In this document: positions 36,601 to 60,835 of the stretch, one piece after another | Layout: every line of letters starts with the position of its first letter | How positions within the stretch are numbered: the stretch's first letter is position 1 | From: Nemertoderma westbladi | Taxonomy: Eukaryota > Animalia > Xenacoelomorpha | DNA length: 64,000 nt | Reading direction: 5' to 3' | Assembly: GCA_032718475.1 (NCBI GenBank) | Contig: JAUCBJ010007720.1 | Location: 62,001 to 126,000 of the forward strand | The notes under the pieces: model-generated | Database searches by the model: none | Told to the model about the DNA's origin: nothing | What the model saw: the letters and a program-made list of their open reading frames with translations, nothing else | Program-made: the position numbers and the translations under genes

Positions 36601-38275
36601 TGTATCAATCCAGAGTAGGCCTATCTGTAAGTACAACATGTATCAATCCAGAGTATATCTACCTGTAAGTACAACATGTATCAATCCAGAGTAGACCTAT
36701 CTGTAAGTACAACATGTATCAATCCAGAGTAGGCCTATCTGTAAGTACAACATGTATCAATCCAGAGTATATCTACCTGTAAGTACAACATGTATCAATC
36801 CAGAGTAGACCTATCTGTAAGTACAACATGTATCAATCCAGAGTAGACCTATCTGTAAGTACAACATGTATCAATCCAGAGTAGGCCTATCTGTAAGTAC
36901 AACATGTATCAATCCAAAGTAGGCCTACCTGTAAGTACAACATGTATCAATCTAGAGTAGGCCTATCTGTAAGTACAACATGTATCAATCCAGAGTATAT
37001 CTACCTGTAAGTACAACATGTATCAATATAGAGTAGGCCTACCTGTAAGTACAACATGTATCAATACAGAGTAGGCCTACCTGTAAGTACAGCATGTATC
37101 AATCCAGAGTAGACCTATCTGTAAGTACAACATGTATCAATCCAGAGTAGACCTACCTGTAAGTAATACATGTATCAATACAGAGTAGGCCTATCTGTAA
37201 GTACAACATGTATCAATCCAGAGTAGGCCTACCTGTAAGTACAGCATGTATCAATCCAGAGTAGGCCTATCTGTAAGTACAACATGTATCAATCCAGAGT
37301 AGACCTACCTGTAAGTAATACATGTATCAATACAGAGTAGGCCTATCTGTAAGTACAACATGTATCAATCCAGAGTAGGCCTACCTGTAAGTACAGCATG
37401 TATCAATCCAGAGTAGGCCTACCTGTAAGTACAGCATGTATCAATCCAGAGTAGGCCTATCTGTAAGTACAGCATGTATCAATCCAGAGTAGGCCTACCT
37501 GTAAGTACAGCATGTATCAATCCAGAGTAGACCTATCTGTAAGTACAACATGTATCAATCCACAGTAGGCCTACCTGTAAGTACAACATGTATCAATCCA
37601 CAGTAGGCCTACCTGTAAGTACAGCATGTATCAATCCAGAGTAGACCTACCTGTAAGTAATACATGTATCAATACAGAGTAGGCCTATCTGTAAGTACAA
37701 CATGTATCAATCCAGAGTAGGCCTACCTGTAAGTACAGCATGTATCAATCCAGAGTAGGCCTACCTGTAAGTACAGCATGTAGCAATCCAGAGTAGGTCT
37801 ATCTGTAAGTAAAGCATGTATCAATCCAGAGTAGGCCTATCTGTAAGTACAACATGTATCAATCCAGAGTAGACCTACCTGTAAGTAATACATGTATCAA
37901 TACAGAGTAGGCCTATCTGTAAGTACAACATGTATCAATCCAGAGTAGGCCTATCTGTAAGTACAACATGTATCAATCCACAGTAGGCCTACCTGTAAGT
38001 ACAGCATGTATCAATCCAGAGTAGACCTACCTGTAAGTAATACATGTATCAATCCAGAGTAGACTTATCTGTAAGTACAACATGTATCAATACAGAGTAG
38101 GCCTACCTGTAAGTACAACATGTATCAATACAGAGTAGACCTACCTGTAAGTACAGCATGTATCAATCCAGAGTAGACCTATCTGTAAGTACAACATGTA
38201 TCAATCCAGAGTAGACCTACCTGTACGTACAACATGTATCAATCCAGAGTAGGCCTACTTGTAAATACAACATGT
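611..38275. repeat. Tandem satellite array, 38-bp monomer (consensus AACATGTATCAATCCAGAGTAGGCCTATCTGTAAGTAC), about 990 copies
   Basis: Head-to-tail 38-bp period is visible throughout. Recurrent variants are GGCC/GACC/GGTC/TATC, ATCT/ACCT, TAAG/TACG/TAAC and CATGT/CACAT, with occasional 44-bp monomers containing CTACCTGTATCTG (e.g. ~24500, 24620, 25120, 26000, 27750, 28140). There are no spacers, and the ORF track is empty until the last monomer. Confidence 0.99.
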
Positions 38276-39683
38276 GTTGCCGTTATTCCCGACACCATGG
38301 GGAAAACGCCGATGCTGGAGGCGGAATTTTCAGACCACAGGATTCCGGCCAGTCACCGGATATTGGGAGTGGAGAAGGAGTCCTATCTGAGATGCAAGAT
38401 TGCAGTAGAGAAAAAGTTGCATTGGTTGGAAATAATCTTTAATGTAACTAAACTCTGAATGAATCCTGATTGAGAATAATTTGGGCTTCCCCACACCAAT
38501 ATACCAAATATTCACAATAATACACGAACATATAAATTCCTACAGTACATTAATTAATTATCCACTGTTCGCTTTAGATTTTAACCTAACTAATGTTCCC
38601 CATTTTCCCTCGGTCCTAGTCCCGGTACCGTAGTGTCGGCGTCGGTCGACCCTGTTGCGTGTCCGTCCCACCCCTCCCGAACCCCGAAGGGATCGGTCAT
38701 CAGGAAAGCAGTACGGCTTGGCTAAGGGTCAGTCAAGTCGGTAGACCCGGTTGCGTGTCCGTCCCACCCTTCCCGAACCCTGAAGGGATCGGTCATCAGG
38801 AAAGCGGTACGGCTTGGCTAGGGGTCTGTCGGTTCATCGCAGGGTCCCAATTACCTAAGCTTTCCGAATCCTTTTCAGGCTCGTAGTCGCTTCGGTAGCC
38901 GAGAAGCTGCTCCGAATAGTCGGTAGGCCAGTAGAGTCTGGTCTTTTGTCTTTCGCCCTGTTGCGTGTCCGTCCCACCCTTCCCGAACCTTGAAGGGATC
39001 GGTCATCAGGAAAGCGGTACGGCTTGGCTCGGGGTCTGTCAGCCCATTGTGAGTCCCAACTGTCGGTAGCTTTCTGAGTCCCTTTCAGGCTCGTAGTAAC
39101 GCCGGTCGTGGAACCCACTCCAGGAAGGCAGTCCTCGTCAAACCCTTCCTCCGTCTAGTCGGTCGATCCGTCGCAAGTCCCCGGTGCAGTCAGCAAGCTT
39201 TCCGAGTCCCTTTCAGGCTCGTAATAACTGCCGGTGACCAGGGACCGCTAAGGATCTGTCTGTCAGTTCCCGTTGCAAATCCCTGACGCAATCAGCAGAC
39301 TTTCCGAGTCCCTTTTAGGCTCGTAATAACTGCTGTTGGCCAGGAACCGTTAAGGGCAGTCCTTGTCCCTAGGCCTAGTTCCAAAACTACCTCTCCTGGT
39401 TACTAAAACTACCTCTACAGGCAGTAGGAAGTTGGCTAGGCCTAATAGTATCAGGTAAACCTGAGTACTGCTTGATTTTGCCTCCCACCCTTGGCCCTTA
39501 AATATCTGATATGAGTCCCGTGCCCCGTAAGTCGCCCCAATATTCGCCCGTGAATCGCCCCCAGTCCTTTGAATATACCCAAATTCCATGTTCCCGCACC
39601 CAGTACTGATATTGGAATATTTATTAAAAATAAATCCGAAAAATATTCAACTCGCGTTATGAAAAGTTGAAATACCACGAACA
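38275..39683 (-). repeat. Putative 3' LTR of element 1 (~1.4 kb) with internal ~100-bp duplications
   Basis: On the minus strand it begins TGTTCG right after the G7 tract and ends ...GGCAACA at the satellite junction (TGTT...AACA termini). A TATA-like TATTTAA lies near 39500. No second copy is present in the window, so the left boundary is inferred. Confidence 0.65.
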
Positions 39684-39694
39684 GTCCCCCCCAA
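39684..39694 (-). promoter_or_regulatory. Polypurine tract of element 1
   Basis: The minus strand reads TTGGGGGGGAC directly before TGTT, the same arrangement as the element 2 PPT. Confidence 0.7.
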
Positions 39695-39852
39695 TGACCT
39701 TCGTGAGGTCCATCGGTAGATCGAGTTTGCGTAGGTCATTTCCCATATAAAAAACCCAAATTTTAATATTGCATAGTCCTGATTAAGAGTTAGTTTACGT
39801 AGATATAAAAAATAACTGTTTGATATAAATGTCCATAGAATATCCTGGTCTT

Positions 39853-40518
39853 CTATTTCTTACTCTGATACGCTTTCATTCTCTTCGCCCGTCTACTCTC
39901 ATCAATCGCCAGTGCAGGTAGGGGAGCATCATCGTCCATCGCGAGCATCGCTGCAGCTTGTCTCCTGGCGGCCCTTCCTTTAGATGGTAGCGGGATCATG
40001 TCCATCCATCTCTCCAACTCGGTGATGCGGGCCTCTAGAAACCATTCTCCATCACCAAATGCTTCTTTGTATGAGTATAAGCGTCTGAGGATCTCGAAGG
40101 GAGCAAATAATCCAGCGCTCAATAGTAAATCCACATAATGGAAAGGTAGTGTCGCTGCCGTATGGAGGCGTTCTGGGAATGAGAAGTATCCGCACGCCAT
40201 CTCTTGCGCGACATTTCGAGCGCTTCTACGCACTTTGGTCTTTACGTGGTTATTAGCATATGTTTCAAACATTACCATATTTCCCATAGTTGTCGCGTCC
40301 TTAGTAGGACACTTTATGTTACATCGGGGACTCGCGGAATGTCCACGGAAACCGCATTTTGTGCAGAGGTTGTAGAGGGTTGGACAAACCAATACATCGT
40401 GGCCCGATATAGCGCAATAGGGACAGTAAAGGATCTGGAGACACGACTCGGTAACCCGATGTCTCCTTCCGCGTGGGCACTGTTCCGAACCGCAGTTTCC
40501 GCACACCTTCAGTTGCAT
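39853..40518 (-). CDS. Cys/His-rich protein with CCHC zinc knuckles, probably the C-terminal part of the element 1 accessory gene
   Basis: 221-aa ORF with CPYCAISGHDVLVC (CX2CX4HX4C), CTKCGFRGHSASPRC (CX2CX4HX5C) and an upstream CGNC...H...C cluster. It is on the same strand as pol and ends ~160 nt before the PPT. Confidence 0.65.
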   Translation of the reverse strand: MQLKVCGNCGSEQCPRGRRHRVTESCLQILYCPYCAISGHDVLVCPTLYNLCTKCGFRGHSASPRCNIKCPTKDATTMGNMVMFETYANNHVKTKVRRSARNVAQEMACGYFSFPERLHTAATLPFHYVDLLLSAGLFAPFEILRRLYSYKEAFGDGEWFLEARITELERWMDMIPLPSKGRAARRQAAAMLAMDDDAPLPALAIDESRRAKRMKAYQSKK

Positions 40519-41214
40519 CTCCCAGCCTAAGAATATCGGGATCGGTACGCCGGCATAATACTCCAGCCGTTGGTCATTTTGGGGATAATCGCAGCAGCCA
40601 GTAGCCCGTGGAATGCTGGGCTTTTGCGGAGTATGTTCTCGCTACAATATCCTTCCTTATATCCCGCCGGTTGCATCCCGGGCGCCCGTTTCTGGTGGTG
40701 GATCTACTCGGTTTGTTCGGCGTACCACCGGGTGAGTCTCATAGGGTCTTGTGGGACGGAGGGTGCCGTCGCCACAGCCAGTCGGCGAAGGGGTGCCGGG
40801 GCGTTCGCCGGAGGAATTCCGAGGAGGTCTACGGGGGTTGGAGCAACGCTGGGACCCTTCGCAACCTGTATAGCTGAGCGGGTCCGCTAGGGTGCTGGTA
40901 CTCGGGATCTCTGAAGACCAGTCTTCTCCTCCCGGGAACGGATATGGAAACAACCTCTGTCATGTGTCGCTGAAGTCGCTAAGCGCAAAGGTGGTTACTA
41001 GCTCTCTAGCAGGACTGCCGGAGCCAAGCGGGGTGGTTACGCCTGCCTCCGTTGCAGGTTCGGAAGCGGCGATCCGTTTGGCAGGTGGTCTGTAAGCAAC
41101 TTCCGGATCGAGTTGTCGTTTTGGGGCGGATAGCAGGACACCTTCCTGTAGCCATAATTCCTCCCTGTCCGATGATATCAATGGTTCCTCTTCACCGAGG
41201 AGATCAACAATCAT
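40519..41214 (-). pseudogene. Disrupted Pro/Ser/Thr-rich linker of the accessory gene
   Basis: ORFs 40960..41214 and 40657..40953 share a frame and are separated by one TGA. The frame is -1 relative to the 412-aa ORF and is open from ~41270, consistent with a 1-nt deletion. More stops or shifts occur near 40650. Confidence 0.5.
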
Positions 41215-42449
41215 AGGGATGTCGAACGGTCTGTTATCATCCCAGGATGCGATGACGTTGTGAGTTTCCCGTAGTTATCTCCCGGCGGGATATTCTCTAC
41301 CGCTTTCAACGCGTGGTCGATAACTTCGTTCCACTCATAGTCGATGAAGGATCTAGGAACCGAATTAATGAGTTTATCGAGAGTCTTGAAGATGAACTTG
41401 GCAACCGTGTATGATTCCATTGTGACGTGGATAAAGTTCCGTCGATCCGGATTCTCCCATTTTTGGTGGATCGTCCACTTTCTTTCTACATCCTTCCAAC
41501 GGTTCTCTCGCTCATTCTTTATCTCTAATTCCGGGTGTGCACCATATATCTTGTTATAGTCTAGAAATTTCTGTGGTTTAAAGTCTATACCGCCGTTTAG
41601 CACCGCGAGGTAGCCGATACCGGATTTCGTAGGTCTCACTTCCCGGAATCCGTGCATGAATTCTGTGGATCGCAACCAGGCTAACAGGGTTTGGGTGTCG
41701 ACGAAATGACTAACGGCGTTAAGGTCTTCTCGACGGTTTCTTCCGAAGGGAGCATTAGCGTAGTCATTTTGGATATCCGCCTTTATATCCGACCCAATTT
41801 TAATAACATCGAAATCGAATAGGATCTGTTGGATCTCTGGTGGTAATAGCCAGACCGCTCTGGCTGTTCGCACCTCCTGTTTGGGTGTCGGGAATATTCG
41901 ACATATCAACACTAGACCATCTAGGGTTCCGAGGACGACGACTAATGATCGACCGTATTCCTTCATCCCATACTTCTCCTGGTAGTTGTCGCGGTTCTGG
42001 ATGACTGATATACGTTCCTCTCGCAGCGTCGCTGTACATTCCGCTAGATTTCCCCAGTGGGCGAGGTATGTACTCATGTTGTCGACGAAACTTTGGCATC
42101 GCGCCAACGTAATCGCTTTTGAGGTGGGCGTCGCGTTTCCCTCGTTGTTGTATATCAAACATCGGGATTTGAAGACGCTTCGCCAGAACGTATCCCAGAA
42201 CGACAACTCCTCTCCTCCGGTTGCCTTTGCATTCCGAGTCCTTTTCAGGCTCGTACTGACATCGGACAACCGGAGCTCTCGTAGATTACAGGAATCCGGT
42301 TCCTCCCGCCCGGAGAATTTAATGATTCGCACGTTCTCTGTTATCAGGGCGTTCCATTTCGTATTAAAGTGAGGAGATCCAGGCTGTGGATATTCCAGTA
42401 AATCAAGAGTGTTACGTAATTCGCCGAGAATTTGGCGATTTGAGTCCAT
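41211..42449 (-). CDS. Accessory protein with a DEDDy/RNase D (WRN/EXD/Mut-7-like) 3'-5' exonuclease-like fold; catalytic residues appear divergent
   Basis: 412-aa ORF with segments in family order: VVVLGTLDGLVLICRI, LPPEIQQILFDFDVIKIGSDIKADI, FVDTQTL, SGIGYLA, W...HVTMESY. Compare LLQLA..G...LF, LP..L..LL.D..I.KVG..I..D, .VDL..L, SL..L, W....YAA.DAY. Recognised by eye only. Confidence 0.65.
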   Translation of the reverse strand: MDSNRQILGELRNTLDLLEYPQPGSPHFNTKWNALITENVRIIKFSGREEPDSCNLRELRLSDVSTSLKRTRNAKATGGEELSFWDTFWRSVFKSRCLIYNNEGNATPTSKAITLARCQSFVDNMSTYLAHWGNLAECTATLREERISVIQNRDNYQEKYGMKEYGRSLVVVLGTLDGLVLICRIFPTPKQEVRTARAVWLLPPEIQQILFDFDVIKIGSDIKADIQNDYANAPFGRNRREDLNAVSHFVDTQTLLAWLRSTEFMHGFREVRPTKSGIGYLAVLNGGIDFKPQKFLDYNKIYGAHPELEIKNERENRWKDVERKWTIHQKWENPDRRNFIHVTMESYTVAKFIFKTLDKLINSVPRSFIDYEWNEVIDHALKAVENIPPGDNYGKLTTSSHPGMITDRSTSL

Positions 42450-43004
42450 ATTTTAAATTATATCCATTGCAAATTTAAATCAGTTAGTTATAAATCCAGA
42501 AAGTCTGATTCTATAGCGACTGCAGAATAATTCAGTTATTTGTAATTCAGTTTATTATTATTGCTAGGTAGGCATCTACCATCTTATTGCTACAACATTC
42601 AGTATTTACAGTTACTATAGCTATACATTATTATCCAACCAGTTTTTTGACTTTTTATGTCCTCTTCTTTTTCCAATTCTTTTCTTTTCTACATTTTATA
42701 CATTTTTTTGTCTTTTTTCATTTCTCATCTATTATTCATTTCACATTTCATTATTTCATCACATTTAATGATTTATTTCCATATTTCATCATTTATTTCC
42801 ACATTTCATTGGGGTTATAGCCCCCTGGCTATCATCATTTGATATAAGCGCAGCACCAGGGTGCGCATCATTACATTTTCATCATCATACGCGTCATCAT
42901 TCAGTTTATAGTAGGGTTGTCTGTTTCTTTTCATCATTTCCAACTACATTCAACCATCTTCTTTGGGAAATTTTCGTAGTGGAAGGGGTGGTGTTATGCG
43001 GAAA

Positions 43005-43410
43005 TCTGGGATCTACAGCTGGGCTAGTTACACCGCCTACGCCCCAAACTGCACACGTAACGGACAATGAAGACGCTGGAAGTGAAGTCACGTGGAATGC
43101 ACCAGGGACCCACCAGAATAACACTACCAACAACATAAAGCTCAGCCGACGAAGTCATGTGGGATGGGGTTATGCAACATTCTGGGATCTACAGCTGGAC
43201 TAGTTACACTGCCTACGCCCCAAAATCCACGCAACGGTCCCACCAGAATAACGCGGCTGAGAAACATAAAACCTCTATCGACGAAGTCATGTGGATGCAC
43301 CATGGACCCACCAGAATAATGGGATAGAGGGGGTGTTGCGCGGCAATTCGGGATCTACAGCTGGACTAGTTACACCACCTACGCCCCGAACTGCGCACGC
43401 AACGGACAAC
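43005..43410. repeat. Three imperfect ~170-bp tandem repeats between pol and the accessory gene of element 1
   Basis: Core GGATCTACAGCTGG(A/G)CTAGTTACAC..CCTACGCCCC at ~43009, ~43185 and ~43351, with shared CCCACCAGAATAA and CGACGAAGTCATGTGG blocks. Confidence 0.85.
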
Positions 43411-43680
43411 ACAATATAACACAATGGATACAATGAATTCCACTTCGAATCTTTACCATTTCCAATAATCCAATATTGTTGGTCCTGATGACCAAAATCA
43501 GGGTTAACAATACATAAACTTCCCTGCGTCAGTCGAAACATCTGCAGGGTGACGCTGGACTCCACATAACACACGAGGAAACACAAATACCATTGCGTGG
43601 CTACAGTTGGTTTAAGGGGGGTCCATTATTCATTGTCGGTAAATCACATTTAAAGAGTTTGTCAACAGGATGAGAAGGGT

Positions 43681-46600
43681 TTAAACGGGTTTAGCATTGT
43701 CACCAATGTCCGCAGCAGGATCCGGAGTAGGGAAATTATCACCTCTCTTGGAGTCACCACTGTCTTTGCCATCAAGAAGGCACAGCCTCTGGATAGGGCG
43801 GTGGTAGTGGCCCTTTGGCGTCCATATCGTCACTGTCCTCGCAAGTCCGTCCTTGCTTGGGGTTATTTCCATGACTCGTGCCACAGGCCAGTGGACGCGG
43901 TCTTTAAGGTCTTCCTTACCAAGCACCATGTCGCCAACTGCGATGTTCCGGTAGGTGTTATTCAACTTCCTCCTGGTCCGGAGGGTTATGAGGTACTCTT
44001 GGGCCCAGATTCTCCACCAGTGCGCTGCCAGCGCTTGGGCCTTTTTCCAGTTGGTGTGTCTCGCAATATCATTGGGATCTGGGAACATTGCCTCCGGAAG
44101 AATGTTGGTCTTGGGTCTTCCAAGTAGATGGTTGGGTATAAGAGGCTCCAGATCTGTAGGGTCATTGTGGATGGGTACGATTGGCCGGTTATTTAGGGTG
44201 GCAGTGATCTCGCAGAATGCAGTGCGAAGGGTGTCGTGGGTTACCCGGGTATCCCCTAATGCGACACGCATGGATCGTTTCACCAAGTCGATGAGTTTCT
44301 CCCATACCCCACTCGTGTGGGGTGCTAAGGGCGTTTGGAAATGCCATTGTATATCCAGACTTGGGATGCGGTCTCGTCAGTGAACCATCCCTCGATAGCC
44401 TCTCTGAGTTCCCTTTCTCCTCCCACGAAGTTCGTTCCATTATCGGAGTACATATGCCGGCATGATCCGTTGTTTGCCACAAACCGACGCAGAGCGTTGA
44501 TAAAGGTGTGCTGCGTGAGGTTTACTACAAGGTCTAGGTAAATCGCCCTTGACCTAAGGCATGTGAAGATGGCTCCCCAGCATTTGATGTTGGATCGTCG
44601 CTCGATGACTGTAAATGGTCTGAAACAATCTACTCCGGTTACATAGAACGGCGGTGAATCGGATTGCAGCCGTGTAGCCGGTTGGTCGGCCATTCTTTGG
44701 ATGAGTAGTGGCGCTAGGTATCGTCTGCAAGGGAAACATCGTTTTAAGACTTTCCGGATCAGTGGCTGGATGTGGGTGATCCAATATCTTTGCCAGATGT
44801 TGGTCATAATCCAGTTCTGGCCCACGTGATGGTTTTCCTCGTGACACTGCTGGGTTAATAGCTTCGCTAGTGTTGATGTTCCGGGCAGAAGTGCCGGGTA
44901 TTTGACTTCATATTCAACCGGGGCGTTCGCCATCCGGGTATTTAGTCGGATCAGTCCATCTTCCCCCATCATGGGTCTCAACTGGTAGACTGGGCTGTCA
45001 GGTTTCAAAGTCCTGCCTCTGCTGAGCTGTTCCCATTCATCGGGGAAACTTTCTTTCTGGACGTATCTCACAATACATTTCTCCGCAATAATGAGTTCTT
45101 GTATACTTCATCGAACTATCGGTTTATTATCCTTCCACCGCAGGAAGTTGCAAAGAGTCATGATGTGGTGGATAAGACGTCTCATTGAGGAGGTTCGCTC
45201 TATCAATAGTTGTAAGGACGCGGCTGGTTGCGCAGTAGTCGCAACATTATAGTGCCTGCCCGAGTCCTTTGCAGGCTCAGTCAGGCAACTCTAGATTTCC
45301 ATGGTGGCGCTTCCATGGACTTTGCGAATCTCCTTGTCGTCTTCCGAATATTTCCCGCTATCTAGTTCGGGATCGAATCGGGTGCTCCAGGTTAGTTGTG
45401 GTTGCTTTAAGAACCCCGGGCCTGTGATCCAAAGTTTACTCTTACCGAGCTGTCGTGGGGTGGTGCCTCTGCTCGATAAGTCCGCTGGGTTTTCTTTCCC
45501 GTTTACGTGGTGCCACTGTTCTCGGTTGGTACATTGTTTTATTTCCGTGGCTCGGTTCGATACGAACGTGGTGTGTCGCCGTGATGATGAGTGTAGGTAG
45601 TAAAGCACGATACTCAAATCAACCCAGAAATGCTGCGATTCAATGGGGATTCTTAGGTTCCGCATGATCATGCGGTTCTGCCTCACTGCCCAGATTGTGG
45701 CCTGCAGCTCGAGTCTCGGGATTGTTGCCACGAATTCCCCGGATACCGTCTTGGCTTTGGAGAATAAGAAGCTTGTATCACCATTTCCATCCTGACTTAA
45801 TCTTCTTAGGAAGGTAACTACGCCGATTCCGGTATTCGATGCATCCGAGAAAGTATGGAGCTGGAATATATCGGTGGGTAGTTTGTCGAGGAAGAACGGT
45901 CGAGGGATCCGCATGAGGTGTAGCTGTTCGAGTTGTTCCGTCCACTTCTTCCATTTGGCACTGAGGTGTGGGGGGAGTTCTTCATCCCATCCCAGTCCTT
46001 CTATCCACATTTCTTTGATCAAATTCATTCCGGCCAATGTGGCCAAAATCTGGCCAAAAAGGCGACCTGGGGATATGAAGTTTAATGGATCAAATATGGT
46101 GCTCTTTACAGATAAATATCCCCTCTTTGTCATTGGTTTGGGCAGAGGGTTATGTTTGAAGATGAACTGATCCAGTGAACTGATGCACTGATTTCTTCCG
46201 GGAACCTTTCCATAAGTTCCTTATCGTGGGATCTAAACTTCACAAGAGGGAAACCTCCTCTCTTTAAACATTCCACCATTCCCATAGCCAGCTGATATGC
46301 CTCGTAAACGTTCTCGGCACCAGCGCATCCATCGTCTACGTAGAAACATCGTCGATTGTCTCTATGACTGTCGGAGGGAACTCATTTTCATACATAGTCG
46401 CTGTTTTCTTCAACATGTCGCTACATGCAACCGGTGAGTCCTTAGCACCGAAGATTCTGACAATCATGCGTATTACGTCCTTTATTACGTCTTTATCTCT
46501 TGTAGAGTCAATGTTTTATCTGTCCACAATATAGGTAGGCCGTCTGAGTCTCTTGGTAGCGTTTGGACCTGGTGGAACATCGCTTTGATGTCGCATGTGA

Positions 46601-46945
46601 AGGCTATTTTGTTTTCTCAGAACCTGATCAATACGCCGATCAGTGTACTATAGATGTTGGGCCCGGTGTAAAGTTGGCTGTTTAAGGATTCGCCCTGGCA
46701 CATAGCCGCAGCATCATTCACTACCCAGATTTTGCCGCTCTTCCGGGCTTCCACCACATAGTGGGTCAGGAGATAATATGTCCGTCTAGTCCCCTGCAGT
46801 TCATTCGGGGGCACCATTTCTGCCTATCCATCTTCTAAATAACCTTTAATCACATTATTATATTTATCTTTTATCTCAGGTAGCTCGTTTAACTGGCGTA
46901 AGATGCCTTTAAGCCTCCTTAGGGCCATGCTGGCGTTAATGGATT
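43681..46945 (-). pseudogene. pol: BEL/Pao pol (RT, RNase H, integrase) with stops and frameshifts
   Basis: ORF pieces 46617..46817, 45291..46133, 44325..45071 and 43681..44286, plus intervening frames, are collinear with the element 2 polyprotein from the pre-RT region (NASMALRRLKGI vs NRGMVLTRLRKL) to the C-terminus (RPIQRLCLL vs RAVGKCCLL). YVDD is at ~46335. Confidence 0.93.
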
Positions 46946-47659
46946 ATTGGATCGAGGGGTGGCGTCCCGTTCCGAGTCCTTTTCAGGCTCGTACTGGGGA
47001 ACGCTCGGTGCCGTAGGGTTGGAAGGGAAATAGGGTTCCTCGTCTTTAAGCGTAACCGGTGGGGGGTGGAATGCCAGTGCTTGTGCCAATAATGTGGACC
47101 GTATAATTGGCGGGAACTCGGGTTTCGGAGGTTTCGCAGCCGGTGGCGTAAATGACTTTTCTAATTCCGGGACCAGGATTGGTTCATAGTCCTGTTCTAT
47201 ACCCCTTTCCCAGTGCTCGTATAGTTGAAGGTCCCGTTTTATGAGTGCTGCTTCGTAGTCTGCGAGTTTAGCAATATCCACATTTTTTTTGTGAATAAGA
47301 ATCGCTTGGGCCTCGGCACTTCATTTACGCATTTCGGCCTCTTGTTTCCGTATTTCGGCCTGTTGTTCGGCCTCTACTTTACGCATTTCGGCCTCTTGTT
47401 TACGTTGTTCAGCCTGTTGTTCGGCCTCATTACGTTGTTCAGCCTGTTGTTCGGCCTCAAGTTTACGTTGTTCAGTCCGTTGTTCGGCTTCTACTTTACG
47501 CATTTTGGCCTCTTGTTTTTGTCGTTTGGCCTCTTGTTTCCGTATCTCGGCCTGTATTTCGGCCTCCTGTTTATGTCTTTCCTCAGCTAGTACATCCTGT
47601 TCGATCTGTAATTGGATGTATTCGCCCGAAATTACATCGAAATGATCGCCTATTAACAC
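46946..47659 (-). pseudogene. gag: N-terminal gag remnant of element 1 (coiled-coil repeats, Pro-rich segment)
   Basis: ORFs 47321..47659 (EAEQQAEQRKQ-type repeats) and 46919..47281 (Pro-rich) lie upstream of pol on the same strand. The gag core, knuckles and protease are absent. Confidence 0.65.
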
Positions 47660-49467
47660 AATTCATGGCAGGCCTAAGAGAGTCTAAACTTCGCCAAGAG
47701 GTGCTCAAGGCACCAATGAACTGTCTAACAATCGAGGATCGAGTGCAAGAATACTCGAGGCTAGTCAGTCTGTAGATATGGCGCTAGAGAAGCCAGGCAT
47801 GTTACATAATCCAGTAGCTTCTATGTATATTTCAGATACTGAAAAAGTGAATGGGGAATTATTATGTGCTGTCAAAAGATCGGCATACAAATCACAAATG
47901 CAGTATATAGTAAGGGACTGGCATTTAATGTCAGAATTGCAGGCGTCCACATGGTAAAGATAAATGTTTCACTGTTTTACTGTAAGATCTAGTAGTGTAT
48001 ACCGGCTCGTACAGTATCTGACAATACATCCCAGCCCAGGGTGTCTAAATAAACAGATACTAAATACGCAAACTACTAATGGCAAGGAACGGAGCCTGGT
48101 ATCTATTCTAATACGTGGGCGAGTCAAATGCCCGGGCGAACTAGACAAAACAGGATACCCAGCCTCTAACCGGTGATGCAGATGTACAGTCTACGGTGAC
48201 AGACCAAACTCACGAGGAAACAATCCCCGCGCAGCGAATCCTAACTATCGCTAACGGACCTAAATACCGTAAACTTGCCACGGTGTGATTTATATACGAG
48301 CTAGTGGATTAACAGACTAGTGTAACAATACTACTAACAAGCGGTAGCAGTCAAAGGGGGGTAGTAACTAAAGTAACAATACTGCTGACAGGGGCAAAGC
48401 AGTCAAAAGGGTGCATGCCATCTAAAACCGTAAAACTAAATACTAAATATCTCCTAAAATTACAAACTACAAATGGTAGAACTGCAGAATAGATCCTACT
48501 GAAAGTAACCTAAAGTAAGCTAGTAGCTAGTAGGTCTCGAAGGGGGTATATATATGTTTTAGGACGTGTGTGTGCGTGTTACGAGTAAAACAATTTTGGT
48601 GTATTCCATTGTACTAGGTTTTAGTGATTTTAATCAAAACAATACTGGGCGCTAGCTACTAAAATAAGCTAGTCGCGCTCTGTAGGTTTAATACTTACAA
48701 ACTGACGTCAAAGCTCTCTCCTCCTTATCCACAACTCAACCGGGCAATTACGGTGTTAGTAACTACACCCGTGATCGGCACTAATACCAGATTCTGATTG
48801 TGAGATAAGAGAATAGGTGTTAATTACTACCGTACGTAGCTGATCTCGTACTAATTTGATTCTAGAACTTTGTTACTGCAGTGGTTAGCAGTAAATACCT
48901 ATCAGTACGTGGCAAGGCATGGTAGGATATTAGTAACCTCCCTAGGCCAAGCATGTGTCGGTAGCAGAAATGCTGCTCCTTGCCTGATCAAATATTTCGG
49001 GCTCAGACAGGGGTGGGCAAATGTATAAACTACAAAGTGAACCGGTGCAGAACTGTCAGTACTGCAAATCACTAAATTATAAAACATGTGCTATCCGCAC
49101 CTAAAGTGTACTTGCGCATACTAACGAACAGCAATAGTTCACACCTGTAGGAGATACAGGTTAATCCGGGGATTTTGCTTGTTTGCTCCTGTCTAAGTCT
49201 AAAATATTTGAACCTACATTTTACGGCGTCCCAGGACGGCGTCATGCTTACCCTGATCTATAGGTCTTACTGTGGGCAAGGGCGTCAAACAAAGTCTTAC
49301 CTTCCTCTGACGTGGGCGCTGTATGGCAATGGGGCATGCTTCGAACGGGCGCGCGGGCGAATCTAGTGTGGGCGCTTAGCGTGTTGTGGACATCTTTCCC
49401 TGAGTTGCTGACGGCCGAACGGTTTAGGCAGCCATCTCCCAAATGCTTGGATGTCCCAAAGGTGGAC

Positions 49468-50007
49468 TGTTAGCTTATTCAATCCCGCTAACACCCCATA
49501 AAGTTATAAGCCGATAAGCAATATTGGGAGCCACGAGATTGGGTAATTAACCAACTCGTGCCATCCCAATAAGAATGGGAAGGAGAAGCACACAATGAGG
49601 GTCAGGGGCCAAACCCCTAACCCAGAGAGAATAGGTGGAGTGAACGGGAACACTCCAAAGGGCGCCAACAAGGGTATCAACCAATCAGAGGGGGGAAAGG
49701 CATCGATTAGGTAGAGTAACAAGGCCAACCGTGCAATATAGCCACTTGGCAGTAATCATACCAATTCAGTTATCTCAGTGCAATACCGGTGCTAGATTAG
49801 GTTACATAGTTTTAGATAGGGAAGGACCGGGACTTTAGTTACCGTATCCCGCCTTCCATATACGACAATATTATATCTATATCTATATCTATATCTGCAT
49901 ATCATATTATATACGACAAACAGTACAAACTCATTTACTCTTTATACACGGCGGGGACGCGTGAACTAAAACCGGATAAACCGGGATTCCTCTTGGATCC
50001 CGTCACA
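49468..50007 (+). repeat. 5' LTR of element 2 (540 bp)
   Basis: Direct repeat of 60836-61379 with TG...CA termini. About four substitutions are seen by eye, plus a small indel in the ATATCT microsatellite. Confidence 0.97.
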
Positions 50008-50016
50008 GTAACTAAA
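50008..50016 (+). promoter_or_regulatory. Non-tRNA primer-binding site candidate (GTAACTAAA)
   Basis: Abuts the LTR end, lacks the TGG of tRNA PBSs, and is the exact reverse complement of TTTAGTTAC at 49834-49842 inside the LTR. Confidence 0.5.
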
Positions 50017-50074
50017 CCAGCTGCCGCCCTAGATAAACTCTGTAACCACCAGCCACCAAATCTGCAGGGGAAAG

Positions 50075-52459
50075 ATGAGTCAGTCGGGTGAGATAACACC
50101 GACGCGGACCCCGGACGAAGAGCTAACGATCCGCGAGGCCGCAACCAGGCGATATAGGCCCACGACGCCGGACCCATCGGTAACGGGTCATCCGGCAGTT
50201 CAGGACGAGGGGGGCCTGGAACCCGAGGTCGAGCCGAGAGGAAGAGAGAGCGAGACGGAGGGAGAAGGAGACGAGTCGACACGGGACGGGGGTCGACGCA
50301 CCGGTGTCGCCGGCCAGCCACAGGCCGAGGGCGACGAGCGGCCCACCGAAACGGCGACGGTGGGGCCGACGGTGCGGCCCCGGACGCAGAGAGACGAAGG
50401 AGATATCGGTACCGATGTCGCCGGCCAGCTACAGGCCGAGGGCGACGAACGGCCCACCGGAACGGCGACGGTGGGGCCGCCGGTACGACGTCGAACCCGG
50501 AGAGACGGACGAGGGGTCGGCGACGAGGACGTCGGGGTTTCTGAGCGACTTCGACGGGCCTACAACGCGACCCGGAGACTACTAGAGGAGGCCAGAAAGG
50601 GGAAAACGATAGACGAGGTAAAACTGAAGTCAGGACTAGGTAAGTCGGACAGACATTTATACTATCTAATGCGTTTCGGGCAGAGAGAATTGGCCGAGGA
50701 GAGAGCGAGAAAGGTTGCCGAGGAACTGTATGACTCATGGCGGCATGGGGGTATACAACCTAGTGTAGTGTACATAGGGCCATATTTAATCGATGCCCGG
50801 GGTATAAAATTAATGGGTTGGAACAGACCTGAAGGGGGCGAATCCGAGGTTAACCCCGAGGATTCGGCCTCGTCGGTCGGAGGGAGTTCCGGGAGGAGGG
50901 GGAAAGTTAGTAGATCGGGAAGGCGGAGGGAGTCCGTCGTAACCGATAAGTCTGCTACATCCTCCGCGAAAGAAAGACTGGTGAGAGAGGCAGGTGCCGC
51001 GTACCGTCTCGAGCTGATAGAGCAAGGTCAGAGGGAAATGGATAAACGGCTAGAGGAGGGGAGAATGCGGCTAGAGAGGGAAGCGGCATTGATTAGAGAA
51101 ACCGGAGAGAGGGCCGAAAGGGCTTTGAGAGGCCTTAGGGAGTGTGAGGAAATAGAGGAAAAGGAGTGTAGGGAACGTGAGGCGAGAGAGGAAAGGGAAC
51201 GCAAAGAGCGCGAGGCGGAACGCAAGGAACATGAGGCGAGAGAAGAAAGGGCACGCAAGGAGCGTGAGGCAAGGGAGGAAAAGGAACGCAAAGAGCGTGA
51301 GGCGGAACGCAAGGAGCATGAGGCGAGAAAGGAAAGTGAACGTAAGGAGCGTGAAGCGAGGCGAAGGGAGAGTGCTAGGAAAGTAGTAGAGTTGGCTGAG
51401 CGGGACACGCGGGAGTGTGAGAGGAGAATGGCAGGAGCCGAGCGAGACCATGAGGAATTAAAGAGACGCCAAAGTGAGCTTGGGGAACATAGGGTTAGAC
51501 GCGCGCACGAGCTGCAACTGGTGCGGGCGGGGGCGTCTGAGAGCGAGACAGGCTCGAGTATTTTAGAGGAGCCAGGGGCCGTGGATACATTTATTAATAC
51601 CCCACTTACAGGGACCGCACGACAGACCCAAAACTGGTGTGACCGTACGGGCGGGGGGGGGGGGGGGGGGGGGGGTAATAATGATAATGGTACAGTAGAC
51701 GTGGTTAATATTAATAGTACCGTATGGGATAATTCTAATCAAACCTTTATTGCAGGAAATACTTTGCCTAGTGGTAGTAATTTAAATTTAAATCAGAACA
51801 ATCTTAATATTAATGTAGAAAATAATCCTAATATTAATGTAGCTACGCAAAATAATCCAAATAATCAAAATAATAATAATTCAAATAATTTAATTAATGA
51901 GCCAAGCCCGAATTTACAAGATAATTCAAATGATTTTATTTCGAACGAACAAGTTAATTCCATTCCCAATACAGGTGCTATTAATGTAAACACGTCGGGC
52001 GTGTATGGCCAGACAGATGGGGCCCAGGTAGGCCACGTAATTGGTAGGCAGGGAGTGGCTGGGTTAGGTAGACCCGGCGAGGGCCTGGTAGGCCACGTAG
52101 TTGGTAGGCAGGGAGTGGCTGGGTTGGATGGACCCAGCGAGGGCCTGGTAGGCCACGTAGTTGGTAGGCAGGGAGTGGCTGGGTTGGATGGACCCAGCGA
52201 GGGCCAGGTAGGCCGCATAGTCGGTAGGCAGGGAGCAGAGGGCCTGGTAGGCCACGCAATAGCAGAGAGAGAGGCGGGGGTGAATAGACCCGACCGCGGT
52301 AGGGTTGATGTGTCTACTAGAGAGGGATATAGTAGCGGGATGAGAGATAGCGAAGTTAGATGTGGCGAGTGGGGGGGGGGGGCTACGAGAGCCCCACAAC
52401 AGCGAGTTAGCGGCGAAAAGGGGGGGGGCAGAGAGTGTCCCACAGCCGTCAGCGGATAA
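50075..52459 (+). CDS. gag: N-terminal part of the element 2 Gag-Pol (acidic/Arg-rich repeats, E/R/K coiled coil, Asn-rich block, 20-aa repeats)
   Basis: 794-aa ORF starting 68 nt after the LTR. It overlaps the next ORF across G-homopolymers at 52371-52382 and 52420-52428. BEL elements normally have a single gag-pol ORF. Confidence 0.8.
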   Translation: MSQSGEITPTRTPDEELTIREAATRRYRPTTPDPSVTGHPAVQDEGGLEPEVEPRGRESETEGEGDESTRDGGRRTGVAGQPQAEGDERPTETATVGPTVRPRTQRDEGDIGTDVAGQLQAEGDERPTGTATVGPPVRRRTRRDGRGVGDEDVGVSERLRRAYNATRRLLEEARKGKTIDEVKLKSGLGKSDRHLYYLMRFGQRELAEERARKVAEELYDSWRHGGIQPSVVYIGPYLIDARGIKLMGWNRPEGGESEVNPEDSASSVGGSSGRRGKVSRSGRRRESVVTDKSATSSAKERLVREAGAAYRLELIEQGQREMDKRLEEGRMRLEREAALIRETGERAERALRGLRECEEIEEKECREREAREERERKEREAERKEHEAREERARKEREAREEKERKEREAERKEHEARKESERKEREARRRESARKVVELAERDTRECERRMAGAERDHEELKRRQSELGEHRVRRAHELQLVRAGASESETGSSILEEPGAVDTFINTPLTGTARQTQNWCDRTGGGGGGGGGNNDNGTVDVVNINSTVWDNSNQTFIAGNTLPSGSNLNLNQNNLNINVENNPNINVATQNNPNNQNNNNSNNLINEPSPNLQDNSNDFISNEQVNSIPNTGAINVNTSGVYGQTDGAQVGHVIGRQGVAGLGRPGEGLVGHVVGRQGVAGLDGPSEGLVGHVVGRQGVAGLDGPSEGQVGRIVGRQGAEGLVGHAIAEREAGVNRPDRGRVDVSTREGYSSGMRDSEVRCGEWGGGATRAPQQRVSGEKGGGRECPTAVSG
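52021..52260 (+). repeat. In-frame 60-bp tandem repeat, about 3.5-4 copies, encoding GLVGHVVGRQGVAGLDGPSE
   Basis: Visible in consecutive 60-nt lines 52021-52260. Confidence 0.95.
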
Positions 52460-55400
52460 TGCGAGGGCCGAAATAGGTAAACCGCAACAACCGGCGACAG
52501 AAAGTAATAGGGGGATTGCGAGTATCCCCAGCGGCGTGCGACCGAGCAGAGAGAGACAGGTTGACGTCGTGAGAGGGCGGACGAAGCGTCGAGCCCGATC
52601 GGAAGAGGGAAGAAGAACAGTGGGGTTTAACCGGGAGGTCGACGAGAGATCTCACGAGCGGGAATACTCCACTGAAAGGAGAAGAAGAGAAGACAGTAGT
52701 AGAAGTATCGCCGCGAACGATAGAAGAGCGAGGACGGATAGCGAGCCGTCGGTAGTCGAGATGAGAACAGAGAGTCAGTGGGGTCGGACTCCGGGAGATT
52801 GCCATCGCCCCGGAGAGATGCGACCCGGCGAGGCGCACTACGCGCCGAGAGAGGGGTACGCGATGTACCGGTACGAAGATGAGAACAGTAGAGAGGGGGG
52901 TCGAAGAGAAACTTTCCGACGGAATATACCTACCGATCGAGAATACGGTAGCCGCGGGGAGGATTATTCGAGAAGAATAAACTTCGATCCCGAACAACAC
53001 ATGCAGACTGTAGGACATACTGTATGCCTTACTGCACATACCGTAGGCCATACTGAGAGAGGCAATGTAGGCGATAGGATAGCGTGGACAACGGGATTAA
53101 ACCCGGAAGTCGCGGAATACATACCGGCGGGTAGGCCAGAAGCTGATAGGCCTATACCGGTACCAGTACAGCAGTATGACTACAGCATGCAGGGACATAA
53201 CATATACCCAGGGGAGGGGGGAATTATTGCGGATAGGTGCATGGGCCCCAACATATTAACATCAACCCCAGTACCAAACATACCGGTGGGGGGGGGACAG
53301 GGTGACATTCCCCCATCACAATATCAACAATATACCCCGATAGGAGCAAGAACAACGAGACCCTTGCATGAGAATAGGTCGTGTGATACAGACATATGGA
53401 GGGGGCCACTACCCCCGATGACATACCCAAGTCAGAGAAAGTCAAGAAATAGGACAGACGGAACGCACCAGACAGGAGAAACTATACAGCATCCGTCGAA
53501 CCCATTGGAAGCACAGGCGATGGGGATGGCCACGTTGATCGACGCGTTGAAAACGAGGATCGAGCTACCACCCGTGGAACCATTCAAATTCGATGGGAGC
53601 AGGCCGGAAGAATATCTACAGTTTTGGCGCATGTATAGTAACGAAATACTAACAAAAAACTTGACGCAGGTGGAGTGCCTAAAGTATCTGCAAGTGTACA
53701 CGGGAGGCCCAGCATACGATATCGTGAGGCAATATCAAGGAATAGAGGGCGGCTTCACGACAGCATGGCGGGCACTGGATAGGGAATACGGGCACCCGGC
53801 CAAGATCATCAGACAGACGTTGAGAGGCATAACATCGGGTGGCCTACAGGATAATCCCATTAGCATTAAGACATTTGCTAACAAAGTTGAAAAGGCGCTA
53901 ATCGTGCTGAAGACGCTAGACGCGCCATACGAGCTCAACGCGTCCAACAACATCACCACGATAGCGCAGGCACTACCGAGCTGGCTGCGCAACAAGTGGA
54001 GGAAAATCGCCTTCTCCACTCGAGATAAGAAGGGTGCGGAACCGGGTTTAGAAGAAATGTCAAACTTCTTAAACTACGAGGCTGAGCTAATAACTGACCC
54101 AGTCTATAGCGAAGACAGCCTGGGAAAGGGACCGAAGACAGACTACCATAGACCGAAACCAGAGCACAACACATCAAACGCATTACCGAGACTCAGGCAA
54201 TCATTGCCATATGCAGCGACGCAGGGGACTGCAAGTCCACAGCTAGCCGAGGATAAGACAACACCATGGAACGGACAGGGAAACAATAACAACACGAATA
54301 AACATAACCCCAGTACGTCCAGTAGGCTAAATCCAAACAATAAGAATAGTAGGGACTTTGGTACAAACGCAACTGCGATACGCAATGCACTGTATAAAGA
54401 GGGCTACGACCCAAAGAGCAAATGCCAGCTACACGCAAATGCGCTTCATCAAACCATGAACTGCAGGTACTGGCAGGCGCTACCTAGGCAGGATCAGATA
54501 GATTATGCGTTCAGCAATAAAATCTGCTCGCGATGTGTAATGAGTGGACATAGAGCAAGGGAGTGCAAGGAGAAGCCAATAAAATTTGGTCAAAGGAGAG
54601 GCCAAACGATGGCGACCAGCACAGTAGGGGCGAAGAAGAGGGGAACGGTGTTACTTGGAGTAGTACCAGTGCGAGTGATCGGGGAAGGCAATCGATCAGT
54701 AACAACACTAATGCTGGTTGATAGTGGAGCTGCTTTCACATTAGTCGAGGGATGGGTGGCCGAGGAGATAGGATTGAGAACGAGGCCAAGCAGGATGGCG
54801 GTAACAACCATCTCTAGCAAAGATGAGATCCTGGAGATGAGAACAGGACGGTGCGCAATTGCAGCAATGGCACCAGGATGCGACTATGGGGCAACCATCG
54901 ACCCCATCCAAGTGATAGAGTCAATTAATATTAATGCCAGGCGACCAACCAACATCGAGGTCGAGCAGTATAAATTCCTGGACGACATTGACTTCTCAAT
55001 CCCAGACGTGGACGTTAGGAAGGTGTCCATCATAGTAGGCATGGACTGCCCAACGGCCCACGAAAGAATGCAAACGGTCTTCGGCGAAGACAAGCAGAGT
55101 GACCCAGTGGCCATATTAACACCATTCGGGTGGACGCTGAGTGGTCCAATTAAGAGCAAGATACCATTTAGGATGTCGGAGACATCAGGATGCATGTTCG
55201 CGGGAACAATGCAGGAAATGGGTAAGGAGGGAGCAGAGGAGCAGCTTAAAAGACTGTTCAGACAGGATTTCGAGGGACTGAAAGAAACCGGAGTCGGGAC
55301 CTCAGTAGAAGACAAGCGGGCTCTACAAAGCGTGGAGGAATCAATGACATGCGATGAGGGACGGTATACTATAGGAATGGTATGGAAACTACCGAAGATA

Positions 55401-58400: not shown

Positions 58401-58628
58401 TGGAGGAAGCCAAATAGGGAGTTAAGAGAGGGAGATCTCGTAATCGTTACGGATGATACTATCATCAACAACCAGTGGCGGTTGGCGAGAGTTGTAGGCA
58501 CTTACTCCGACGAGGACGGAAGAGTCCGATCGGTAGAAGTGCGGATAGGTGGTAAGATAGGTGCGAAGGACAGAAAAACCTACAGGAGGGCTGTGGGAAA
58601 ATGCTGTCTGTTAGAAGGGGCACCTTAG
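52362..58628 (+). CDS. pol: BEL/Pao Gag-Pol polyprotein: Gag core, zinc knuckles, aspartic protease, RT, RNase H, integrase
   Basis: 2088 uninterrupted codons. Motifs: PPVEPFKFDG (gag core), CQLHANALHQTMNC and CSRCVMSGHRAREC, LVDSGA, CDIEGMF and YVDD, FFDAS/PKLELTAA/WTDS/NPADLLSRG, HHCC, VDMFGP/SDNGTNF/VERLVG, WRRWVEEYL. Confidence 0.97.
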   Translation: MASGGGGLREPHNSELAAKRGGAESVPQPSADNARAEIGKPQQPATESNRGIASIPSGVRPSRERQVDVVRGRTKRRARSEEGRRTVGFNREVDERSHEREYSTERRRREDSSRSIAANDRRARTDSEPSVVEMRTESQWGRTPGDCHRPGEMRPGEAHYAPREGYAMYRYEDENSREGGRRETFRRNIPTDREYGSRGEDYSRRINFDPEQHMQTVGHTVCLTAHTVGHTERGNVGDRIAWTTGLNPEVAEYIPAGRPEADRPIPVPVQQYDYSMQGHNIYPGEGGIIADRCMGPNILTSTPVPNIPVGGGQGDIPPSQYQQYTPIGARTTRPLHENRSCDTDIWRGPLPPMTYPSQRKSRNRTDGTHQTGETIQHPSNPLEAQAMGMATLIDALKTRIELPPVEPFKFDGSRPEEYLQFWRMYSNEILTKNLTQVECLKYLQVYTGGPAYDIVRQYQGIEGGFTTAWRALDREYGHPAKIIRQTLRGITSGGLQDNPISIKTFANKVEKALIVLKTLDAPYELNASNNITTIAQALPSWLRNKWRKIAFSTRDKKGAEPGLEEMSNFLNYEAELITDPVYSEDSLGKGPKTDYHRPKPEHNTSNALPRLRQSLPYAATQGTASPQLAEDKTTPWNGQGNNNNTNKHNPSTSSRLNPNNKNSRDFGTNATAIRNALYKEGYDPKSKCQLHANALHQTMNCRYWQALPRQDQIDYAFSNKICSRCVMSGHRARECKEKPIKFGQRRGQTMATSTVGAKKRGTVLLGVVPVRVIGEGNRSVTTLMLVDSGAAFTLVEGWVAEEIGLRTRPSRMAVTTISSKDEILEMRTGRCAIAAMAPGCDYGATIDPIQVIESININARRPTNIEVEQYKFLDDIDFSIPDVDVRKVSIIVGMDCPTAHERMQTVFGEDKQSDPVAILTPFGWTLSGPIKSKIPFRMSETSGCMFAGTMQEMGKEGAEEQLKRLFRQDFEGLKETGVGTSVEDKRALQSVEESMTCDEGRYTIGMVWKLPKIPLPDNRGMVLTRLRKLKQTLKRSPEKNEYIHRTIKKYVEKGWAVELPVDEPNTDRTYYLPLHVALDPKKGKLRMVVDASAKTDGKCLNDYLLEGPNIYNSGIEVLLRFRNGKHAFTCDIEGMFNQVRVTEEDSDSQRFLWYNGEEEPSIIPAYKMVVQNMGAKSSSFTTTMAVRDTVKGKEDRYSSRAVDMIRRGFYVDDGMESGNTVKEILDTGREVRDILKGSGFNLTKFQSSSEEFIKAIEDRKPESTMDNPTTAKGQDMAIKRTESQQKALGIVWDRETDELKYQLSQEGADIHTKRGYVSYIARIYDPLGLASPLLVTGKQILKRVYKLKDEWDVEVPEEIKKQWSKWTGDLEKMGTYNMPRVYFPDGNMMNLDLHMFFDASLEAYGAALYLVQREGAHKPRLAFSKAKSTPPDSASVPKLELTAARLGVRATAYLVDTIPNIVETHYWTDSMVVLGWLHNERTRYPIFVANRVDEIRASTELERWHYCPTDDNPADLLSRGVVRHTFLKKEVLWQHGPQFLSDKEAWPPMRKVDPGSEVESEGEEGDSEGEEIYSQMVREIRDVQPGRELCDNPTDKLLSYSSSWYKTKKLVAYWRAFGNFLAGVGKDKKIRTTIDLEGAAKAVIRYEQRKNYGDEVERVGNQQHLRRDSELITLSPQLNDDGILVMNSRVGYNNSIVVPPKPIIIPTGSPIVHQIIWDSHKSILHGGTNRTLTEIRRTYWVKQLRKKVKAVVGQCQTCRRAKKERAVQEMAPLPASRVRQHDPPFTHCGVDMFGPIKIKVMRHTEKRYGIIFVCNNTRAVGIELAQDATASAFINALERFRDRKGGTIAVIYSDNGTNFVGAESEIAEALDILEGEEVRAAMRRRQVKWERRMPYAPHTLGCVERLVGSSKRLMTKLMNTHMVTEDVLRTVLAKCEGIINSRPLYPENDDPESLDVLTPSHFLMERPATIDMRGVDPDDIHSRQSWKVAKAISAEYWRRWVEEYLPTLHKRSKWRKPNRELREGDLVIVTDDTIINNQWRLARVVGTYSDEDGRVRSVEVRIGGKIGAKDRKTYRRAVGKCCLLEGAP

Positions 58629-58775
58629 TAGAGTTAGAGAAAAGTTTAGTCGTCCAAGTTTTGGACTGAGGGGGGTGGGATTGAGGGCGAGACGCCCTTC
58701 CCACAAACAAAATAAAATAAAATAAAATAATAGTACATGGTAGGTACGCAGTTAGTAGGCAGAAGTTAGTTAAGA

Positions 58776-60826: not shown

Positions 60827-60835
60827 GGGGGGGAG
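60827..60835 (+). promoter_or_regulatory. Polypurine tract of element 2
   Basis: GGGGGGGAG immediately precedes TGTTAG of the 3' LTR. Confidence 0.92.

Follow-up and report, generated by a model that had tools for sequence, protein, structure and literature searches.

Seven copies of a predicted loop E-type RNA hairpin and a candidate reader protein in a BEL/Pao retrotransposon of Nemertoderma westbladi

A 64,000-nucleotide stretch of the Nemertoderma westbladi genome (GenBank assembly GCA_032718475.1, contig JAUCBJ010007720.1, positions 62,001 to 126,000 of the forward strand; called the window below, with positions counted from its first base) contains a decayed BEL/Pao long terminal repeat (LTR) retrotransposon on its minus strand. 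This element, element 1, carries seven copies of one small RNA hairpin in LTR and coding sequence, together with an accessory gene. We propose, with a probability of about 0.4, that the seven repeats serve to dock the accessory protein which the element itself encodes and which is predicted to have a catalytically inactive DEDD fold and CCHC zinc knuckles. Each docking module would consist of a lower stem, a sarcin/ricin-type internal loop, a four-pair stem, a bulged A, a short stem and a GNRA loop. The accessory protein would coat the element RNA through the repeated modules, and the coated RNA would be steered toward export, transport or particle assembly.

All seven copies of the 19-base core (each named below by the first base of its core) lie on the minus strand, which is the sense strand of element 1, at the places given by the initial annotation of this DNA. 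Within three mismatches the core was matched seven times, whereas 100 shuffles yielded 0.00 matches on average. With a covariance model derived from the seven copies, the same seven were recovered at 42–59 bits, which is a match by construction. No eighth copy was found on either strand of 36000–64000, a region that includes a second retrotransposon (element 2), and the next best hit reached 8.6 bits; occurrence in both orientations, which had been named as the sign of a DNA-level site, was therefore not observed. The four LTR hairpins are not independent, since two lie in a 102-base unit and two in a 210-base duplication unit, and the seven copies represent about five independent contexts. 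Within the window, the wobble changes listed by the annotation, the AAAA loop, the lost basal pair and the invariance of the bulged A all hold. The bulged A is on the 3' strand in the predicted folds.

The core is translated in different frames at the three coding places, where the reported peptides TSLKRTR, YEPEKDSE and EPAKDS are indeed present in the translations. Flank identity is only 15–48% for pairs involving a coding copy, so the core common to the copies is not a long duplication; 73–80% was reached only in the duplicated LTR pair 39203/39305. The claim that conservation is at the level of the nucleotides and the RNA structure was borne out; it is strand-specific, and neither coding nor long duplication produces it as a by-product. 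Thousands of contig pieces from four public DNA runs (X1–X4; one organism, at most three samples, contig-level data) cover element 1 at 80–100% likeness, and element 1 therefore belongs to an abundant family. Two of the coding copies are identical over 26 bases, in a family whose contigs diverge by up to 20% from the window. None of the three coding copies falls within a matched protein domain, and the 42235 copy lies upstream of the accessory-protein part common to relatives. The annotation placed the 46973 copy in gag; its coordinates are right, but the label follows from position only, and tblastn with the element 2 polyprotein gave no match at this site of element 1. A search of Rfam 15 gave no match near the gathering threshold and none on any hairpin copy, and a known ribozyme, small nucleolar RNA or other Rfam family was rejected for lack of such a match. 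Exact-pattern scans of viral contigs, metagenome contigs and prokaryote genomes gave no copy, a negative of little weight because animal DNA is scarce in these collections.

The repeated unit exceeds the core. In six of the seven copies it is preceded by ANUA and followed by GAA, and beyond these lies a lower stem. The lower stems are unrelated in sequence between copies and keep their pairing. When the 26-base centre was fixed and the two 22-base flanks were paired, with 300 composition-shuffled and 300 random element segments as controls, flank-to-flank pairing was above that of at least 96% of the composition-shuffled controls in six copies, and the test was not significant for the 45261 copy (Table 1). 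The sense strand of the extended hairpin had the lower energy and the lower z-score in 7/7 copies (Table 1); these fold windows had been selected to contain the hairpins and, with the LTR copies being related, amount to about five independent cases. A sliding-window fold scan found no general sense-strand excess, with 10 sense versus 17 antisense of 318 windows below z -2.5, which indicates that the hairpins are local features. The G.U counts in the predicted stems, a weak indicator, were higher on the sense strand in four copies, equal in two and lower in one.

ANUA opposite GAA is the pattern of the sarcin/ricin (loop E) motif, and the internal loop of the six copies is predicted from sequence to be of this type. 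The bulged (variable) base in these copies is G, G, U, U, C and C, and the flanking pairs are C.C, C.U, U.A, U.A, U.A and G.A. In the reported description of the motif, the flanking trans sugar-Hoogsteen (tSH) pair is AG, AA, UC, CC, AC, GG or UA, with G-A in the prototype, and the bulged G may be U, A or C (PMC8450098). The flanking pair is among the reported tSH combinations in five of the six copies, and the bulged base is the usual G in two and U or C in four.

The accessory reading frame proposed in the annotation is present, and its predicted domains would suit RNA binding. In this copy it consists of two parts, mutually out of frame near 41211–41274, with stops at 40962, 40659 and 40644. 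Pfam gave no match for the frame 41211–42452. Searching with this frame, phmmer returned four matches. The top one, P0001, contains 26 stretches of one repeat and was rejected as a repeat artefact, and the others (P0002–P0004, E 2.5e-5 to 5.6e-4) are three unnamed metagenome proteins. P0002 and P0004 also match the knuckle frame 39853–40641 (pairwise E 5e-12 and 3e-15). Since these single-frame relatives match both parts, a single gene, disrupted in this copy, likely comprised the two. Word-indexed protein searches added nothing to the phmmer relatives, and sequence searches of solved structures gave no meaningful match. Searches for DNA of relatives, made with the accessory alignment and with the integrase, yielded none.

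The predicted model of P0004 matches EXD2 (Foldseek E 2.2e-6), as well as Nibbler, EXD1 and Egalitarian (Z 10.4, 10.0 and 9.3; root-mean-square deviation 4.1, 6.0 and 4.8; 197, 206 and 193 residues aligned), and also WRN and RNase D. Among the Atlas look-alikes of the accessory protein, PF01612 is found on 50% of one cluster (score 0.91). The accessory protein is accordingly predicted, at low confidence, to have a DEDD 3'-5' exonuclease-type fold of the RNase D / WRN type, with CCHC knuckles. The first acidic motif (ExoI, D-x-E) is present in all three relatives and missing from the window frame in three alignment modes; the window frame has a gap of about 20 residues at this site or, when aligned by eye without a gap, non-acidic residues. 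Two X4 contigs extend across the ExoI site and show no long insertion there. The loss is therefore probably found in other copies too, and the accessory protein appears to have lost catalysis. As a side result, P0002–P0004 define a DEDD-fold protein family missed by Pfam, two of them with C-terminal CCHC knuckles; an Atlas cluster with the same two domains, mostly from Euglenozoa (score 0.86), is a lead only.

About 24 bases of the module are nearly fixed while the lower stem only keeps its pairing, which suggests that some protein reads the module. The accessory protein would be the likeliest reader, because it has two kinds of RNA-binding part, because it shows an apparent loss of catalysis, and because there is a precedent: Egalitarian is reported to bind stem-loops, including the signal of the I factor, via an exonuclease-type domain without its catalytic residues (PMC13186709; bioRxiv 10.1101/2025.08.03.668247). 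Element 2 has neither the hairpin nor a 150-codon frame after its integrase, which is one case consistent with a pairing of accessory gene and hairpin.

Binding would likely mark the element RNA for export, transport or assembly. AATAAA followed by TCAGT occurs near the LTR start (39625–39605), but 1.4 such pairs are expected by chance in the window, so the pair does not set the U3/R/U5 borders. Just upstream of the accessory frame, a branch-point-like CTAAC with nearby AGs was seen by eye at 42450–42530 (minus strand); it is a candidate splice acceptor. Five of the seven copies, being in the LTR or the accessory gene, would likely also be on a spliced accessory message. For this reason the Rev/RRE-like pair put forward in the annotation is doubtful in its strict form. 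A broader proposal, tentative and on the unlikely side, is that this BEL/Pao lineage has its own RNA-address system. A DEDD exonuclease would have been captured, its catalytic motif lost and knuckles fused to it, and with the ribosomal-type loop E module, written repeatedly into LTR and genes, as its target it would carry the RNA to the sites of new copies. If true, this would be an element-encoded parallel of Egalitarian and its localisation signals.

Several observations weigh against docking of the accessory protein on these modules, and the first concern variation among other copies of the family. At the accessory site (42235 copy), 143, 100, 101 and 2 contigs were aligned from runs X1, X2, X3 and X4. 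Across X1–X3, variants at 4% of depth or more were found at 2/26 core versus 9/104 flank positions, although contig depth is a poor measure here, the core depth being swollen by contigs from other hairpin sites and the flank being partly lower stem. The suppressed variation that the annotation wanted checked at coding copies was thus not seen at this one site examined. In favour of the module, the other 24 of the 26 core positions had no variant at this level in the three runs. The two variable positions, 42240 (29–59% of summed contig depth in X1–X3) and 42249 (7–13%), pair with each other as the C-G next to the bulged A, and they vary without compensation. Both changes occur together in one X4 contig, where a 1x2 internal loop would replace the bulge; the second X4 contig differs at three more core positions. 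The seven copies also show weak covariation: the structure-keeping changes are as the annotation listed them, but the score of 0.255 was reached in 31/500 shuffles, and no core pair is changed on both sides. The 19-base core has too few substitutions for selection on pairing to be demonstrated.

Further difficulties come from single copies and from the protein. The 45261 hairpin has no ANUA/GAA internal loop. The antisense fold of the 42235 hairpin is nearly as good as its sense fold, and its flanking pair in the window, C.U, is off the published list in that order; at this site most depth from other copies reads U.C. The P0004 model has a mean predicted local distance difference test score (pLDDT) of 35.5, which is low confidence, for a relative at 29% identity, and a single-sequence model of the window's own accessory protein reached 33.6. 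With the ExoI gap the fold would lose one of its core strands, and misfolding of the domain is therefore an alternative to repurposing; P0002–P0004, which keep D-x-E, could be active nucleases. Finally, this copy of element 1 is decayed.

The variation also refines the module. In X1–X3, variation stayed below 4% in the internal loop, in the four-pair stem and in the terminal loop together with the two pairs that close it. Because these parts are kept while the C-G pair varies, the conserved signal is likely not a bulged-A hairpin in the strict sense but a loop E, a four-pair stem, a flexible hinge and a capped GNRA loop. The annotated bulged-A upper stem stands for the window copies, in which the A is invariant, but its neighbouring C-G pair is not fixed in other copies of the family.

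Among the alternatives, a host protein could read the modules, such as an Egalitarian-like adaptor, an export factor or a loop E binder, and carry the RNA from the nucleus or into the germline. The accessory gene would then do otherwise, for example trim RNA ends or counter small-RNA silencing. The 3'-strand position of the bulged A fits this explanation. So do the D-x-E motifs kept by the accessory relatives and the rotifer LTR elements whose DEDDy ORF3 (open reading frame 3) proteins are reported with intact catalytic residues (PMC5408684). Egalitarian signals share shape and not sequence, however, whereas about 24 bases are nearly fixed here, and we consider this explanation unlikely.

A packaging role is rather unlikely. 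The modules would then be dispersed signals bound by Gag in particle assembly, which agrees with their spread along the whole RNA. The 5' leader is the usual place of packaging signals, and the four LTR copies would lie in it if the AATAAA/TCAGT pair were the polyadenylation signal and start site. That pair is at chance level, however, and the likely presence of five copies on the spliced accessory message also argues against packaging. In addition, the Gag capsid, knuckle and protease parts were not found in this copy of element 1.

That the hairpins are relics is improbable. Template switching in the course of reverse transcription would have spread one hairpin to several places, loose protein regions would have tolerated it, and it would now have hardly any function or none. 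The LTR copies did arise through tandem duplications, and the position of all three coding copies outside matched domains, the lack of suppressed variation at the one site examined and the common unpaired variant are as such relics would show. But the coding copies share only about 26 bases, each closed by its own unrelated lower stem, which plain copying would not yield, and two of them have remained identical over these bases despite the divergence of the family.

GNRA loops dock on receptors and are recurrent tertiary building blocks. The modules might then make RNA-RNA contacts, in which GNRA loops and loop E faces dock on receptors and compact or dimerise the genomic RNA without a dedicated protein. 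Sarcin/ricin motifs are likewise described as recurrent tertiary building blocks (PMC8450098), and two further repeated hairpin types on the same strand (described below) are possible partners. This is nevertheless quite improbable: no receptor was recognised, although none was searched for, the loops are not self-complementary, and the near-fixed stem sequence suits base-specific reading by a protein. Least probable is a role at the DNA level, in which a transcription or chromatin factor would bind the repeat as an imperfect palindrome in an LTR enhancer array with outlying copies; four copies do cluster in the LTR and the core has inverted arms, but the single orientation and better sense-strand fold of all seven copies, the lower stems unrelated in sequence and an internal-loop pattern that is sensible only as non-canonical RNA pairs speak against it.

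Table 1. Features of element 1 and results for the seven hairpins. Flank pairing gives how often the pairing of the copy was reached among 300 composition-shuffled and 300 random element segments.
Feature	Position	Strand	Description	Flank pairing (shuffled; random)	Fold z (sense/antisense)
Broken BEL/Pao pol	43681..46900	-	Reverse transcriptase pieces, Peptidase_A17/RNase H, integrase H2C2, DUF5641		
3' LTR, 1409 bases	38275..39683	-	TG...CA ends; G-run purine tract just upstream		
Presumed gag, N-terminal part	46919..47662	-	Coiled-coil repeats, proline-rich stretch; label from position only		
Accessory gene, first part	41211..42452	-	413 codons between stops; DEDD 3'-5' exonuclease-type fold predicted; lacks the first acidic motif		
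Accessory gene, second part	39853..41274	-	Proline-rich stretch, CCHC zinc knuckles; 39853-40641 open		
Hairpin 1, core 46973-46991	46962..47004	-	Proline-rich stretch of presumed gag frame; AGUA/GAA loop, C.C flanking pair, lower stem	11/300; 42/300	-3.0/-1.0
Hairpin 2, core 45261-45279	45251..45290	-	RNase H/A17-integrase linker; GCAA loop; plain long stem, without ANUA/GAA	80/300; 77/300	-4.1/-2.2
Hairpin 3, core 42235-42253	42215..42275	-	Accessory frame codons 65-73; AGUA/GAA internal loop	7/300; 7/300	-6.5/-6.1
Hairpin 4, core 39305-39323	39278..39348	-	LTR; AAAA loop; AUUA/GAA internal loop	0/300; 0/300	-4.8/-2.8
Hairpin 5, core 39203-39221	39173..39248	-	LTR; AUUA/GAA; 102-base duplication unit common with hairpin 4	0/300; 0/300	-3.9/-1.1
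Hairpin 6, core 39075-39093	39049..39118	-	LTR; ACUA/GAA; basal core pair lost	10/300; 1/300	-1.3/+0.2
Hairpin 7, core 38865-38883	38839..38910	-	LTR; ACUA/GAA; G.A flanking pair	0/300; 1/300	-3.2/+0.1

Element 1 has the reverse transcriptase–RNase H–integrase order of BEL/Pao elements, which are described as confined to metazoans (PMC3601003). Its pol domains (Peptidase_A17, E 1.4e-33; integrase H2C2, E 2.8e-07; DUF5641, E 2.5e-25) lie in separate broken frames. No second LTR of element 1 was found within the 64-kb window. Its LTR directly adjoins an array of about 984 copies of a 38-base satellite (484–38270).

Other copies of the family were seen in the contigs. Contig ends at 42227, 42232 and 42257 contain the core with flanks unlike those of any of the seven window copies. 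Judging by these flanks, further hairpin sites are present in the genome, belonging either to regions that this copy has lost or to different families. Contig joints from 39226/39229 and from 38894 join an LTR-type hairpin to a second core, with the best fit to GAAA-type copies. This suggests that other LTRs have a GAAA loop where the window has AAAA, and that the number of hairpin units varies.

Two more hairpin types are repeated on the minus strand of element 1, neither with an Rfam match. The second type, about 60 bases long and 87–93% alike among its copies, occurs in the same LTR at about 38655–38715, 38750–38815 and 38960–39020; its sense fold is the better one in 3/3 copies, and it contains CUGAUGA. 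The third type occurs between integrase and accessory gene (42984–43067, 43160–43243 and 43326–43409), and 4 of its 24 predicted pairs are changed on both sides among the three copies. Element 2 is a better preserved BEL/Pao element on the plus strand (49468–61379) with near-identical LTRs at 49468–50007 and 60836–61379, frames of 808 and 2094 codons, and no long frame in the roughly 2.2 kb that follow the integrase. Its flanking bases show no target-site duplication, and it adjoins the 5' part of element 1 head to head. A broken element resembling a long interspersed nuclear element, with endonuclease and reverse transcriptase-like frames recognised by eye, occupies 61681–64000. It is interrupted at about 62635–63137 by an inverted-repeat element with the appearance of a miniature inverted-repeat transposable element.

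In the literature found, there is little sequence-level description of RNA selection, export and packaging in BEL/Pao elements. Repeats of this kind were not found described for BEL/Pao or other LTR retrotransposons, nor was this accessory gene for BEL/Pao elements, in a search that most subscription journals lay outside. Element 1 combines a short, well-delimited RNA module with a candidate partner, so that this question and the role of DEDD-type extra genes in LTR retrotransposons become testable with a 60-base RNA and one protein.

Rev/RRE, Rex/RxRE, Rec/RcRE and Rem/RmRE are retroviral cis-trans export pairs, and some RNA viruses have dispersed packaging signals. Element 1 resembles the export pairs in that its genomic RNA bears a structured cis element, located in part in the LTR, and in its accessory gene with a likely spliced message. 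Those systems use one large element and a small arginine-rich protein, or a coat protein. In contrast, element 1 has many small identical modules and a predicted large protein with DEDD fold and knuckles.

In its order of loop E, bulged helix and GNRA loop, the module resembles an arm of 5S ribosomal RNA (rRNA). The likeness to the sarcin/ricin motif of large-subunit rRNA and eukaryotic 5S rRNA lies, at the level of sequence, in the non-canonical A.G, U.A and A.A pairs implied by ANUA/GAA, in the variable bulged base and in a flanking pair from the reported combinations in 5/6 copies (PMC8450098). The module differs in being repeated along a retroelement, in the frequent U or C for the usual bulged G, in matching no Rfam family, and in having its GNRA loop seven pairs away from the internal loop. 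Because of this last distance, a mimic of the ribosomal sarcin/ricin loop was set aside.

A parallel to the accessory gene is the DEDDy ORF3 of the bdelloid rotifer elements Juno and Vesta, where an invertebrate LTR element likewise has an additional gene downstream of pol, with the DEDD-type exonuclease fold that is predicted here (PMC5408684). Juno and Vesta are gypsy-type and their catalytic residues are reported intact, whereas element 1 is BEL/Pao, has C-terminal CCHC knuckles and is missing ExoI. The rotifer paper leaves the role of DEDD-type extra genes in LTR retrotransposons open, and the words hairpin and stem-loop are absent from its main text (PMC5408684).

Another parallel is Egalitarian (Egl) with the I factor localisation signal (ILS) and the K10 transport/localisation sequence (TLS). 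There a 3'-5' exonuclease domain is used non-catalytically to hold stem-loops with 3'-strand bulges, one of them in retrotransposon coding RNA (PMC13186709; bioRxiv 10.1101/2025.08.03.668247), and a similar use is proposed here. Egl, which reads shape, is encoded by the host, has LOTUS-like domains and is linked to dynein. In contrast, the protein of element 1 is element-encoded, no LOTUS-like domains were found in it, and its proposed target is nearly fixed in sequence and repeated. If the pairing holds, element 1 would encode a retrotransposon counterpart of the host RNA-localisation adaptors.

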